Below, one piece after another: positions 30,893 through 37,866 of a DNA stretch of 64,000 nucleotides. This DNA comes from Octopus vulgaris (lineage: Eukaryota), in the NCBI GenBank assembly GCA_951406725.2, contig OX597831.1, positions 20,274,001-20,338,000 on the forward strand, in the 5' to 3' direction. The notes beneath the pieces are model-generated. The model was not told where the DNA came from. It worked only from the letters and a program-made list of their open reading frames with translations, and ran no database searches. Every line of letters begins with the position of its first letter. Position 1 is the stretch's first letter. The position numbers and the translations under genes are program-made.

Positions 30893-33833
30893 AACAACAC
30901 CCATATGGACGCAGAGGTGAAAATAAAAGATTTCACCATTGTTCGTGCGGATCGCACAGACCGAAATAAGGGAGGGACAGCCATCTTTATCCATGACTCC
31001 TTTTCACTTGATGCCAAGGACACATTTTCCAATGGCTACTGTGAATCGGTATCAGTATACAACAAAGCCAAGGACATAACCATTGTTGGTCTTTACAGGC
31101 CTCCCCAGGCACCTCTAAAGTACTTTGAAGAGTGCCTTAGCAAAGTCAAGTCCTTCCTTCGGAAGTACCACTCCAGAAACATAATAGTGATGGGTGATTT
31201 TAACCTCCCTCATGTGAACTGGCCCACAAATACTCCGAAGTTAGGCAAGTGCTCTACATCAGATAGGGCAGCAGCAGAACTGCTCTTTAATCTGATGGAT
31301 GAGTATTTCCTGACTCAGCTAGTGCTTGAACCAACGAGACAGAATTAAACGATCTTGGATCTGGTACTGACCAATCACTCTAGCTACGTTCACAGCATTT
31401 CAGTCGAAAAAACTCTCCTCTCAGACCACGACATGGTACTCTGCAATCTTAATTCCCGACGTATAAAAACCAAACCAGCCAATCCCACTCCATGGCACCC
31501 ATTTGACAACATAAATTTCCACAAAGCGGACTGGGGAACAATCAGAAAGGATCTGTCTTCCATCGACTGGTCTTTTACTCTCAATTCCCCTCATATTGAG
31601 ACCGCGTGGCAGCACTTTGAAACCATTGTCACCGACACATGCTCTAAACACGCTCCCAAGAAATCTACTAACACAAACAGAAACCGGCTCCCTAAAAAGA
31701 AAAAAACACTCATCAGGCGCATCAAAAGACTCAACAAAAAAATCAACCAATTAAAATATTCCCACACGCAACACCCACATTCAACAACAATGAAAAGACT
31801 AGAGCTGGAAAAACTTCATCTGCAGACTAACATGAAAACCTCCATTGAAAATCAAAGAGCTGTGGAGGAACAATGGGTAATCAAAAACATCAAACAGAAC
31901 CCAAAAGTGTTCTATTCTTATGGAAATAAGCATAGAACCACTGTCTCACCTATTGGGCCATTGATTGATGAAAACGGCATTCCCCAACACGATGCTAAAG
32001 AAATGGCAGAAATACTGCAGAAACAATATTGCTCTGTCTTCAGTGTTCCCACTGATATTGATGTGAGGGAAACGAACGAAGCTGACTCTCAACACAAAAT
32101 CGCAGACATAACCTTCACTGCCACCGACATCGTAGCAGCAATAAATGAGGTCAAACATTACTCTGCTGTAGGCCCTGATAGATTTCCCGCCAGTCTCCTG
32201 AAGGAATGTAGATATCAACTTGCAGTCCCTCTGACCAACCTCTGGAGAAACTCGTTAGACGCAGGTTATATACCGAAAAAGTTTCTATCCCAGTCGGTCA
32301 TCCCGGTTTTCAAACAGGGAAACAGATCCCTCGCAGTCAACTATCGCCCAATCTCACTCACCTCCCACATCATTAAAGTGTTTGAAAGAGTGTTAAGATC
32401 AAGGATAGCTGACTTCCTGGAGACCCACAAACTCCTAAATTCAAATCAGCATGGCTTTCGCTGTGGCAGGGACTGTCTAACACAGCTCTTACACCACATT
32501 GAAGATGTACTCAAAGCCTTGGGAACAGGTTCGAACTCTGACGTCATATACCTTGACTTCAGTAAAGCGTTCGACAGGGTAGACCATAACATCCTACTCT
32601 CAAAATTGGCAAATGTTGGAATCCGTGGAAAAGTTCTACACTGGATTCAGTATTTCCTAGCGAATAGAACACAACATGTTGTAGTTGATGGAGTCCACTC
32701 AAACCCAGCAAAAGTCACCAGCGGTGTTCCCCAGGGAACTGTTTTGGGTCCGCTACTCTTCATAATTTATGTAAACGACCTTTCCAGTGTCGTACATCAC
32801 TGCAAAGTGAAAATATTCGCTGATGACACTAAGCTCCAGCAAATCGTCAATGAAGAAGCAGACCGAACTCAACTCCAGTCTGACCTATATGCTGTGAGTC
32901 AATGGGCAGACAGAAAAAAAATGCAACTGAATGAGGGAAAATTTGAGCTGATGCATTTTGGAAGAAATTCCTCACTAAAACAACCATACTCTCTTCCTTC
33001 AGGGGAACCGCTCACAGCCTCTAACAATATCAGAGACCTGGGTGTAATTGTTGATTACGACCTCAGTTGGAGTGCACACATCAACAAGAAGGTCGATACA
33101 GCTCGTAGGATGAGTTCCTGGATCTTAAGAACTTTCCGGTCCAGAGAACAAGGTGTCATCATACCACTTTTTTCATCCTTTGTACGGCCACACCTTGAAT
33201 ACTGCTGCCCACTGTGGTCTCCTCACACAAGACAAAACATCTCCAGAATTGAGTCACCCCAGAGGGCTCTCACTAAACAAATTGAAGGCATGGCTGCTCT
33301 CGACTATTGGGATCGCCTTAAAGCCTTGAAACTTTACTCCCTCCAGCGTCGCCGTGAGCGGTACATCATTTTTACGATGTGGAAAATATACCGCCAACTT
33401 TGCCCAAACGACCTAAACATTAGCTTCAAGGTTCATCCAAGACTTGGACCACGGGCTATACGTCCCCTGCCAAATTCAAGATCACAACATACATGTACAC
33501 TGCAACATAATTTATTTTCCTCAACAGGCCCTGCCCTATTTAACATTGTCCCGAGGGAGATCAAAGAGGAAAAGATTCCCATCAACTTCAAACAGAGTCT
33601 GGATAGATTCCTTCAAAGAATACCAGACAAGCCACCCATAATTGGATACAACTCACCCAACAAGAACTCACTACTTGAACAAAACTGGATACAACTCACC
33701 CAACAAGAACTCACTACTTGAACAAAACTTGACTTAAACAGGATTCGAATAATCCTATCAGGTGGTGCTATTAAGTTAGACATGGCCTGGACCAATCTCT
33801 GGTCGAAACATATCTAAGTTTTATCTAAGTTTT
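30893..33833 (+). mobile_element. 5'-truncated CR1-group non-LTR retrotransposon (APE-RT)
   Basis: Abrupt GC shift inside the satellite. APE motifs GDFNLP and SDH; RT motifs YRPISLTS, DFSKAFD, GVPQGTVLGPLLF and FADD; CR1-type C-terminus RPHLEYCCPLWSP and YSLQRRRER. 3' stem-loop GACCA-ATCTC-TGGTC and (TATCTAAGTTT)2 tail. Confidence 0.93.
30905..33721 (+). pseudogene. LINE ORF2 (endonuclease-reverse transcriptase), N-truncated, one in-frame stop at 31346-31348
   Basis: ORFs 30905-31348 and 31355-33721 are in the same frame, separated by TAA within PTRQN*TILDLVLTN. Confidence 0.9.
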
Positions 33834-34114
33834 TATAAATAGAATCTATAAATAGAATCTATAAATACTATCTATAAATAGAATTTATAAATAGTATCTA
33901 TAAATAGAATCTATAAATAGAATCTATAAATAGAATCTATAAATAGAATCTATAAATAAATAAATAAATAAATAGAATCTATAAATAGAATCTATAAATG
34001 GAATCTATAAATAGAATCTATAAATAGAATCTATAAATAGAATCTATAAATAGAATCTATAAATAGAAGCTATAAATAGAAGCTATAAATAGAAGCTATA
34101 AATAGAAGCTATAA

Positions 34115-34485
34115 ATATTGAACATTCCATAGAGGGGGATTTGAAGGTGAAGGGGAAGAATGGGAAGAAGGAATATTGAACATTAAATAGAGTGGAATTT
34201 GAAGGTGAAGGGGAGGAATGGGTAGAAGGAATATTGAACATTCCAGAGAGGGAGATTTGGAGGTGAAGGGGAGGAATGGGAAGAAGGAATATTGAACATT
34301 CCATAGAGGGGGATTTGAAGGTGAAGGGGAGGAATGGGAAGAAGGAATATTGAACATTCCAGAGAGGGGGATTTGAAGGTAAAGGGGAGGAATGGGAACA
34401 AGGAATATTTAACATTCCAGAGAGGGGGATTTGAAGGTAAAGGGGAGGAATGGGAACAAGGAATATTGAACATTCCAGAGAGTTC
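34115..34485 (+). repeat. 58-bp purine-rich minisatellite, ~6.3 copies
   Basis: Unit starts at 34118, 34176, 34234 and onward with period 58. Confidence 0.93.
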
Positions 34486-34490
34486 AGACC

Positions 34491-35095
34491 TGATCAAACC
34501 AGTTCAAACCGGTTCAAACTGGTTCAAACTGTTCAAACCGGTTCAAACCGGAACAAACCAGTTCAAACTCTTTCATCAAACACTTTCATCAAACATTTTT
34601 CATCAGACATTTTCATCAAACATTAAACCGGTTCAAACCGGCTCAAACCGGATCAACCACATCAAACAAGTTCAAACCGGATCTAACCAATTCAAAACGG
34701 TTCAAACTGGTTCAAATCGGTTCAAACCGGTTCAAACCGGATCAAACCAGTTCAAACACTTTCATCAAACACTTTCATCAAACGTTTTTCATTAGACATT
34801 TTCATCAAACATTTTTCATCAGACATTTTCATCAGACATTTTCATCAAACATTTTCATCAAACATTTTCATCAGACATTTTGATCCGGTTTGAACCGGTT
34901 TTATTCGATTTGTACCGGTTTGAACCGGTTTTATTCGATTTTTATTCGATTTGTACCGTATCAAACCAGTTCAAACTGGTTCAAACCGGATCAAACCAGT
35001 TCAAACCGGATCAAACCAGTTCAAACCGGTTCAAACCGGGTCAAACCAGTTCAAACCGGTTCAAACTTGTTGAAACCGGTTCAAAATGGTTCAAA
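34491..35095 (+). repeat. 10-bp GGTTCAAACC and 13-bp ACATTTTCATCA blocks
   Basis: Direct reading; short inverted segment at ~34880-34958. Confidence 0.92.
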
Positions 35096-35129
35096 ATCTA
35101 TAAATAGTATCTATAAATAGAATCTATAA

Positions 35130-35420
35130 ATGTCAGGAATGTCTGGAACGTCAGGAATGTCTGGAACGCCAGGAATGTCTGGAATTTCAGGAATGTCTGG
35201 AATGTCAGGAATGTCTGGAATGTCAAGAATGTTTGGAATGTGAGGAATGTCAGAGATCAGAGGTGCCGACAGAGACACCATCTTTGAACGTCAGAAACGT
35301 CTGGAATGTCAGGAATGTCTGGGATTTCAGGAATGTCTGGAATGTCAGGAATGTCTGGAATGTCAAGAATGTTTGGAATGTGAGGAATGTCAGAGATCAG
35401 AGGTGCCGACAGAGACACCA
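35130..35420 (+). repeat. 9-bp GGAATGTC(T/A) satellite
   Basis: Tandem GGAATGTCT/GGAATGTCA; further blocks at 35825-35936 (minus) and 36944-37087 (plus). Confidence 0.92.
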
Positions 35421-35597
35421 TCTTTGATCATTTTCGGTACTCCTCTTTGATCTCTGTCGGCCCTTCTTTGATCTCTTTCGGCACTCTCTTTGCCGACAGA
35501 GACCAAAGAGGAGTACCGAAAAAGATCAAAGAGGGTGTCGACAGAGATCAAAGAGGAGTACCGAAAAAGATCAAAGAGGGTGCCGACATTCCTGACA

Positions 35598-36127
35598 TTT
35601 GAACCGGTTCGATATGGCTTGATCCAGGTTGAACCGGTTTGATCTGGTTTGATCCGGTTTGAACCGATTTGATCTGGTTTGAACCGGTTTGATCCGGTTT
35701 GAACCGGTCTGATCCGGTTTGATCCGGTTTCAACCGGTTTGATCCGGCTTGAACCGGTTTAATCCTGTCTGTACCGGTTTATCGGCACCGTCTTTGATCT
35801 TTATCGGCACACTCTTTGATCTATGACATTCCTGACATTCCAGACATTCCTGACATTCCAGACATTCCTTATATTCCAGACATTCCTGACATTCCAGACA
35901 TCCTGACATTGCAGACATCCTGACATTCCTGACATTTGAACCGATTCGATATGCCTTGATCCAGGTTGAACCGGTTTGATCTGGTTTGATCCAGTTTGAA
36001 CCGGCTTTATCTGGTTTGAACCGGTTTTATCCGGTGTGAACCGGTTTGAACCGGTTTCAACCAGTTTGATCCGGTTTATACCGGTTTGATCCGCTTTGAA
36101 CCGGTTGGATCCGGTTTGCACCGGTTT
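35598..36127 (-). repeat. Inverted 10-bp GGTTCAAACC blocks with intervening 22-bp and 9-bp units
   Basis: Plus strand reads GGTTTGAACC/GGTTTGATCC, the reverse complement of the upstream blocks. Confidence 0.9.
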
Positions 36128-37245
36128 GTTGGCACCGTCTTTGATCTTTGTTGGCACACTTTTTGATCTCTGTCGGCACCGCCTTTGATCCTTGTCGGCA
36201 CACCCTTTGATCTCTTCGTCACCGTCTTTGATCTCTGTCGGCACCGTCTTTGATCTCTGACATTCCTCACATTCCAGACATTCCTGACATTCTGTCGGCA
36301 CCCTCAATGAACTCTGTTGACACCCACTTTGATCTCTGTCGGCACCCTCTTTGATCTATATCGGCACCCTCTTTGATCTATGTCGGTACCCTCTTTGATC
36401 TATGTCGGCACACTCTTTGATCTATGTCGGCATCCTCTTTGATCTCTATCGGCACTCTCTTTGATCTCTGTCGGCACCCTCTTTGATCTCTGTCGGCACT
36501 CTCTTTGATCTATATCGGCACCCTCTTTGATCTATGTCGGTACCCTCTTTGATCTATGTCGGCACACTCTTTGATCTATGTCGGCATCCTCTTTGATCTC
36601 TATCGGCACTCTCTTTGATCTCTGTCGGCACCCTCTTTGATCTCTGTCGGCACTCTCTTTGATCTGTGTCAACACTCCTCTTTGATATTTGTCGGCACTC
36701 TCTTTGATCTCTGTCGGCACCCTCTTTGATCTGTGTCAACACTCCTCTTCGATCTCTGTCGGCACCCTCTTCGATCTCTGTCGGCATCATCTTTGATCTC
36801 TGTCGACATCCTCTTCGTTCTCTATCAGCACCCTCTTTGAACTCTGTCGGCACCATCTTTGATCTATGTCGGCACACTCTTTGATCTCTATCGGCACCAT
36901 CTTTGATCTTAGTCGGCACACTCTTTGATCTCTTTCGGCAAAGAGGAATGTCTGGAATGTCTGGAATATCTGGAATGTCAGGAATGTTTGGAATGCCAGA
37001 AATGTCTGGAATGTTCGGAATGTCAGGAATGTCTGGAATGTCAGGAATGTCTGGAATGTAAGGAATGTCTGGAATATCAGGAATGTCATCAAAGAGCGTA
37101 CTCTTTCGGTACGCTCTTTGATGTCTGTCGGCACCCTTTTTGATCTCTTTCGGCACCCTGTTTAATGTCTTTCGGCGCACTCTTTGATCTCTTTCGGGAC
37201 TCCTCATTGATCTCTCTCGGGACTCTTTCATCTCTTTCGGCATTT
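36128..37245. repeat. 22-bp CTCTTTGATCTCTGTCGGCACC satellite, degenerating towards 37245
   Basis: Tandem 22-bp units, interrupted by a 9-bp block at 36944-37087. Confidence 0.92.
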
Positions 37246-37816
37246 CATTCATTTCGTTTTCTAGCATATCACTCGCCTGCATGACGCTGGGTTTTCCGCT
37301 GCTCCGCTGCTGCATTAACTTTCGGGTAGTGCTCCATGATCTCTGGGCATCTGCAAACAAAACGTATTCCTCTTCCACAATTACCTCGTCGTCTTCACTT
37401 TCCACCGGCTCTTCGTTTTGCCTTACCTCCTTTGCTATTTCTTCTAGAGTGAAACATGTTGGACAATACAAGTGGCGGTAACTTGTATCAGATATTACTA
37501 ATGATACGAGGGGCCCGACAAGAACATTTTTCGCAGCATCGATAATCTCCTTCTTTTCCTTCAGCGTAAACTCAGTTCGCTTGCGTTTCTGAGCTGACAC
37601 TGTGCTACTTTCTGAACTTTTCAGATACGAAATGTACAAAATGTAGGAGTACAAAATTTCGAAAAGTTGCTTGCGCTAATTTTACAAGTGGCATAGTAGC
37701 GTGAGTTGAGGGTGGCATAGTAAAATTTTTTTGTTTATTATTTGGCCGGGATCGCGCAAAACTGGCATTGTAGTGAGAGTGGCATAGTAGCGAGGTGGCA
37801 TAGTAGCGAGAGTTCA

Positions 37817-37819
<3 letters not shown>
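37246..37819 (-). mobile_element. pogo/Tigger-like DNA transposon remnant (5' TIR plus internally deleted CENP-B-like transposase)
   Basis: Minus strand TA|CAGTGAACTCTCGCTACTATGCCAC terminus with subterminal GTGGCATAGTAGCG repeats. Translation KRKRTEFTLKEKKEIIDAAK (CENP-B/Psq-type HTH start) and acidic TLEEIAKEVRQNEEPVESEDDE C-terminal region; no DDE domain. Confidence 0.75.

Positions 37820-37866
<47 letters not shown>

Follow-up and report, generated by a model that had tools for sequence, protein, structure and literature searches.

A 22-bp repeat with a TCF-type core as one tile of dispersed mosaic minisatellites in Octopus vulgaris

Background

Transcription-factor-binding satellites have so far come to light one family at a time, as with Human Satellite 3 (HSat3) and TEAD. 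HSat3, which forms megabase arrays of a pentamer at pericentromeres, has been described as a binding platform for TEAD/YAP, NFAT and HSF1 (PMC11526998), and TEAD1 depots have been reported (PMC13335116). Satellite arrays that are mosaics of divergent families joined at short shared motifs are described for Meloidogyne, where one CENP-B-like box is common to all families (PMC3694981). HMG-Helper modules and synthetic multimer reporters, known from Drosophila, provide the third point of comparison (PMC4154663, PMC4999783).

Here we analyze a stretch of 64,000 nucleotides from Octopus vulgaris (the window), which contains at 36127-36940 a tandem array of 22-bp monomers, termed A22. An earlier note on this DNA had likened the array to a natural multimerised Wnt reporter. 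We put roughly even confidence in the reading that A22 is a tile of dispersed mosaic minisatellites, which probably spread by microhomology-guided templated copying and probably bind TCF, serving as a sink or platform and not as the Wnt enhancer of a gene. A22 may accordingly be described as a candidate factor-binding satellite, and not as an established Wnt response element.

A22 is a multi-locus tandem repeat with a factor consensus in its unit, as expected of a factor-binding satellite, and, like HSat3, its unit recreates the site of a signaling effector; binding is predicted here from motif content, and a role as sink or platform is plausible. The TEAD core GGAATG is common to HSat3 and to a 9-bp tile of the octopus mosaic. 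Binding has been demonstrated for HSat3 and is predicted for the octopus arrays. Unlike HSat3, A22 does not form megabase pericentromeric arrays but kilobase arrays at dozens of interstitial loci, and here many unrelated unit families, one of them with a TCF site, are stitched together. The Meloidogyne arrays are likewise mosaics of divergent families, except that in the octopus each tile has its own motif and the overlaps at junctions are mostly 1-4 bp. With the Drosophila modules, A22 shares an HMG core accompanied by an RCCG word in two known geometries (AK4 and KK0), and a host TCF with a C-clamp. It differs from them in that its helper departs from GCCGCCR at one base and is unprotected, in that the first S of SCTTTGATS is mostly T, and in being a dispersed satellite with no known target gene.

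What is new is the multi-family mosaic together with the motif-centered footprint. In searches of the open-access literature, neither these repeats nor any satellite with a TCF site turned up. If the preferred reading holds, clusters amounting to about 10,000 TCF sites could serve as a buffer on Wnt output or as a source of new enhancers, and such a set of unrelated short units, most having a textbook site for another pathway effector, would make it testable whether the success of a tandem repeat is steered by DNA-binding proteins; should the matches to motifs reflect chance, the repeats constitute an ordinary, previously undescribed satellite library.

The 22-bp array and the composite block around it

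The earlier note placed a 22-bp array with a TCF core here, and the letters bear this out: between 36128 and 36940, CTTTGAT occurs 29 times, CTCTTTGATCT 19 times and the helper-like (G/A)TCGGCAC 22 times. The word CTTTGATC is present in 38 copies in the window, compared to a mean of 0.98 and a maximum of 4 in shuffled sequence, although such an excess is not specific and is expected from any tandem array whose unit contains the word. The exact self-match of a seven-monomer block (Table 1) means that its duplication within the array is recent.

Beyond what that note described, the array belongs as a tile to a larger mosaic and has many copies elsewhere. It forms the right edge of a composite minisatellite block of ~71 kb (contig C18, ~20,240,200 to 20,311,240), in which tiles with periods of 9, 10, 13, 13, 20, 21, 22, 22 and 58 bp and a 152-bp SINE-like unit lie in both orientations. 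The block extends ~34 kb to the left of the window, where it ends in 22-mers with an NRF1 site. The word ATGCAAAT of the 21-bp tiles is presumably an octamer, and the HSE-like word of the 58-bp tile is so labeled on our own assumption. The LINE within the block is near-intact, with one in-frame stop near 31346, and a 43-bp exact tandem duplication is seen at its 3' end (33643-33729).

Table 1. Features of the mosaic and of the adjacent element, in window coordinates
Feature	Position	Strand	Remarks
AT-rich mosaic of 13-bp tiles (MEF2 CTATAAATAG) and 21-bp tiles (ATGCAAAT)	1..30897	+	
LINE (endonuclease and RT) inserted into 13-bp tile	30902..33820	+	
58-bp tile with inverted TEAD-like cores and one presumed HSE-like word	34114..34482	+	also 28522-28832
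10-bp tiles C10, Grainyhead AACCGGTT / CP2 CNRG-N6-CNRG period	35598..36128	.	also 34482-34757, 34961-35095
13-bp tile G13, without verified motif	34752..34885	+	
9-bp TEAD-core tile	35129..35393	+	another at 35824-35936, minus strand
Short A22 tiles in both orientations	35421..35588	.	fold-back near 35492
Two A22 monomers between 10-bp and 9-bp tiles	35778..35822	+	
A22 main tile, TCF HMG core CTTTGAT and RCCG helper-like word on the opposite strand	36128..36940	+	motif counts
9-bp TEAD-core repeat insert splitting the A22 tile	36257..36292	-	
154-bp (seven-monomer) block duplication inside the A22 tile	36347..36665	+	165-bp exact self-match at offset 154
9-bp tile B9, TEAD core GGAATG at 9-bp period	36945..37087	+	junction with A22 bridged in run X8
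Degenerate terminal 22-bp monomers leading into the MITE	37101..37242	+	junction bridged in runs X1, X4
Truncated copy of a ~860-bp pogo/Tigger-like non-autonomous element with TIRs and TA target	37229..37822	-	left 253 bp missing

The A22 repeat is present in contigs from four public DNA runs with four organism labels. Single run contigs bridge the junction of the 10-bp and 22-bp tiles (run X1), that of A22 with B9 and that of the array with the MITE (Table 1), and the locus is therefore not an artefact of assembly.

Genome-wide occurrence and tile junctions

A 19-mer of the A22 unit has 3415 exact matches in the 2.8-Gb assembly, compared to none for its reversed control. Pattern searches led to 24 A22 loci on 12 contigs, and these, together with stretches fetched later, hold 1161 of the 3415 matches, from which the family is estimated at ~75 arrays and ~10,800 monomers genome-wide; the estimate is rough because the searches were biased towards homogeneous arrays. 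The A22 tiles are interstitial and 0.2-7 kb long, and the largest composite block seen is the one of ~71 kb, though the assembly may collapse arrays larger than these. Among the 17 A22 loci found without a junction pattern, nine stand alone and eight adjoin another minisatellite family, which is the 9-bp tile in five of the eight. Similarly, six of the 19 loci of a 52-bp tile (20 stretches) adjoin other families, including 22-, 10-, 59- and 34-bp tiles. Because the 22-bp and 52-bp loci adjoin one another and shared families, the tile families form one network. The 9-bp, 10-bp and 22-bp words of the mosaic were not found in 200 kb of control DNA, and two long exact patterns matched only the locus from which they were taken.

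The ends of 21 arrays inspected by eye lie in microsatellites, SINEs, assembly gaps or unique DNA, one array ending in a fold-back, and no common terminus or convincing TSD was seen around them. Two arrays 27 Mb apart on C9 (L093:6733 and L094:5679) have an identical junction into a 67-bp SINE-tail repeat; thus the array was copied along with its flank. Distinct tile junctions number 136 (from 185) and are partly related by descent; at these, the overlap between the adjoining units averages 2.1 bp against 0.7 bp expected, and at least 3 bp are common to both units at 31% of them against 8% expected. This microhomology would fit microhomology-guided templated insertion or template switching rather than transposition, and the copying may have taken place during break repair or template switching.

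A general subtelomeric origin of the tiles was considered and rejected: they occur in none of 40 contig-end stretches, few of which reach telomere repeats. They do occur at the start of C18, a stretch retrieved separately. A 15-bp minisatellite with the words CAGGTAA, which we take to be ZEB/Zelda-like, and TAATT lies close to TTAGGG repeats where two contigs begin (L210:1972-2929; L211:6172-9990).

The adjacent MITE

The window array adjoins a MITE, and arrays are found in both orientations, both of which might suggest that the tiles are internal repeats of a transposon, be it this pogo-like element, a Helitron or a foldback element. Plant MITEs with internal minisatellites of E2F sites, which our literature search did not retrieve, provide a precedent for such a carrier. 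The neighboring element resembles pogo/Tigger-type MITEs in its TIRs, in its TA target, with TA/TA in 12 of 13 scorable copies, and in a weak similarity to CENP-B_N (E 0.08, below the cut-off). However, none of the 19 other MITE copies retrieved (40 had been scored) contains an array, the missing left 253 bp of the element do not occur in the 80 kb upstream, and the inspected arrays end in unrelated sequences with neither shared termini nor convincing TSDs. We therefore reject the transposon as carrier of the arrays, an explanation that is largely refuted and that we consider very improbable; the element is a neighbor interrupted by the block. At the join between block and MITE, up to 8 bp are common to both sequences, two bases out of register. 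Elsewhere, on C29 (L127:4554-5456), a terminal 74-bp segment of the MITE itself has expanded to a 12-copy tandem array.

Variation in the TCF core and the helper-like word

Variation was compared among 3312 monomers from the 24 loci; five monomers were dropped as too divergent, leaving 3307. The HMG core CTTTG(A/T)(A/T), the consensus given in PMC4999783, is present in 2811 of these and RCCG in 2635. CTTTGAT is the least variable of the 22 circular 7-bp windows, both in raw counts and after normalization by base class, and at 22 of the 24 loci the core varies less than non-motif positions in both base classes. Among alleles amplified in at least four loci, none of 21 falls in the core as compared to 16 of 33 elsewhere (p 1e-4), and a base-stratified permutation test also supports sparing of the core (p 0.001). 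These p-values overstate independence, since junctions and shared alleles are related by descent. An initial Fisher test (p 3e-15) was inflated, because the singleton and amplified counts are mutually exclusive and alleles are shared by descent, and the allele-sharing and stratified permutation tests were relied on instead.

The helper-like word does not share this sparing to a significant degree. Alleles amplified in at least four loci make up 2/12 in the helper and 16/33 elsewhere (p 0.09), the stratified test for CGGC gives p 0.22 (0.075 when restricted to non-HMG positions), and variants that break the helper are widespread. Thus, of the earlier proposal that both parts recur while the linker varies, the HMG half stands, whereas the helper is not significantly more conserved than the linker, a result which that note had itself named as counting against it. 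Nor is the word the canonical one, the full fly helper GCCGCCR being found in only seven of 3307 monomers.

Within arrays, purging of private core variants was not seen in comparisons of low power, the amplified fractions in the core and elsewhere being 4/114 versus 4/69 and 16/206 versus 17/171. Since private variants fare equally in core and linker, the filter must lie in the spread between loci or in a source array, and not in each array. On the reading that we prefer, the core would drift like any other position within a single array, while monomers with an intact core may be favored as seeds or donors between loci. This could come about if bound arrays meet and exchange sequence, or if a source array is under host selection, and the protein that reads the CTTTGAT core would probably be TCF.

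Arrangement of the sites and the host TCF gene

The arrangement of the two words was read against the oligonucleotides of Table S1 of PMC4154663. A reversed helper-like word lies four bases upstream of the HMG site (AK4) and another lies directly downstream (KK0); the window array has 25 AK4/AK5 pairs and 23 KK0 pairs. The RCCG helper thus stands within a few bases of the HMG site in a permitted geometry. In PMC4154663, AK6 and FF0 are the strongest arrangements and KK0 is intermediate, binding better than HMG alone, while AK0-6 belong to the arrangements with the highest enrichment in fly TCF peaks.

The C-clamp that the earlier proposal presupposed is also present in the host. A search with HMG_box found the TCF gene at 42.74-42.77 Mb of C6, with HMG exons and a C-clamp exon; the last cysteine of the clamp, past an apparent intron, was not found. 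Genome searches with the family PF08347 and with a degenerate C-clamp pattern returned no TCF match, the latter because the intron interrupts the pattern. The gene has two alternative copies of its second HMG exon (C6:42,758,000-42,769,900), and a short copy of the 52-bp tile lies ~90 kb beyond the C-clamp exon. An A22 array beside the TCF gene was looked for and rejected, no A22 word being found within 200 kb.

These arrangements, the C-clamp exon and the sharing of the locus junctions by runs of three organism labels are what one would expect if the array were a natural multimerised Wnt response element, which drives a neighboring gene through HMG and C-clamp binding and beta-catenin. We nevertheless regard this as improbable. 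A22 does resemble such a reporter, but it is a dispersed satellite of ~75 arrays in which private core mutations are not purged and helper-breaking variants abound, and the window tile lies at the margin of an AT-rich satellite block of 71 kb, with no A22 word near the TCF gene. Moreover, the only Pfam domains above cut-off in 194 kb, among the 150 longest of 382 candidate ORFs and at the cost of missing short exons, are of transposon type; weak sub-threshold matches around the locus include NAA35 at ~120 kb.

Other tiles and their motifs

Several other tiles also contain words that match factor consensus sites. A 22-bp tile has an exact match to the NRF1 consensus GCGCATGCGC (PMC10810270), and two tiles match the MEF2 consensus CTAWWWWTAG exactly (PMC3250504). 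The 10-bp tile combines an exact Grainyhead AACCGGTT with CP2 CNRG-N6-CNRG, whose spacing in PMC5829564 equals the 10-bp period, and the GGAATG of the 9-bp tile recurs at 9 bp, the common spacing of TEAD double sites according to PMC11526998. The NRF1 tile (576 monomers, four loci) has a footprint of its own: the motif is the least variable window (rank 1 of 22), shared alleles amount to 1/30 in the motif and 11/36 outside, and the stratified p is 0.0007. The labels POU, STAT, ONECUT, CUT and HSF given to words in tiles are our assumptions.

From such matches one may conjecture that each tile multimerises the site of another signal-responsive or developmental factor (TCF, TEAD, Grainyhead/CP2, MEF2, NRF1, POU, STAT), and that binding selects the repeats that spread and gathers the arrays, which would then recombine into mosaics acting as 'natural synthetic enhancers' or as sinks for several pathways, a satellite drive steered by transcription factors. 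This is a possibility that we hold only tentatively. A 15-16-bit site is found in 7 to 10 of 16 tiles, a post hoc count with motifs chosen after the tiles had been seen, and the excess of motif-bearing tiles, indicative only, has p 6e-5 to 1e-8 for a universe of 100 motifs and 0.02 to 2e-4 for one of 300, and loses significance with 1000 motifs.

The last of these values also suits the view that the tiles are an ordinary neutral satellite library, whose members derive from each other and join at short words, site resemblance being a matter of chance and of a bias towards short palindromes, and the core being due to a founder effect or to its use as a recombination or junction box. Some motif is indeed likely in any 22-mer, a 6-base TCF-type word being expected in ~66% of random ones (100-motif universe), and the words for NRF1, Grainyhead and MEF2 are palindromes or close to it. 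Motif protection is not significant in five of seven tiles (B9 0.10, H20 0.15, D13 0.17, S52 0.42, C10 0.80), purging is lacking within arrays, and words are common to tiles at their junctions; the 10-bp tile also contains TTTGATC, and the core may therefore be kept as a recombination box. Protection of the STAT tile, predicted before its sequence was retrieved, failed (site 1 ranks 19 and site 2 ranks 43 of 52), while its N position is free, as predicted. In newly found neighbor tiles the predictions had mixed success, a 63-mer having an octamer word and a 13-mer and a 16-mer having no exact textbook site.

Against neutrality, the least variable window coincides with the motif in two unrelated tiles (rank 1 of 22 in both), the TCF core is no palindrome, and the 10-bp and 9-bp periods equal the published CP2 and TEAD double-site spacings. 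Further, variation peaks at position 3 in the 9-bp tile and at positions 22, 44 and 48 in the 52-bp tile, all of which the presumed consensus leaves free. On balance we consider the neutral library rather unlikely, and retain the dispersed mosaic that probably binds TCF.

Several of these tiles recur in other settings. The 22-bp tile with the perfect NRF1 site is interleaved with the 152-bp SINE-like tandem unit (L063:6236-6942, 8044-8199; L108-L114), a pairing that recurs right at the beginning of C18 and at two places on C30. For the 52-bp tile, with two STAT-type words, a 26-mer has 90 exact matches, distributed over ~40 loci on many contigs (L079, L174-L193; L154 ~5900-6350). Beside the STAT tile lies a 63-bp, 96%-identical repeat (L186:2283-10000) with words that we take to be GATA-, E-box-, octamer- and SOX-like. 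A 34-bp tile (L095, L119, L174, L180, L183), which adjoins 22-bp and 52-bp tiles, has as its least variable stretch TCGATAAAA, presumably CUT-class-like. At the start of C8, 84-bp C2H2 zinc-finger-like repeats that are 99% identical extend over 10 kb (L201). Finally, one 23-bp version of the TCF unit has the TEAD core GGAATG as well, within a single monomer (L175:8-1137).
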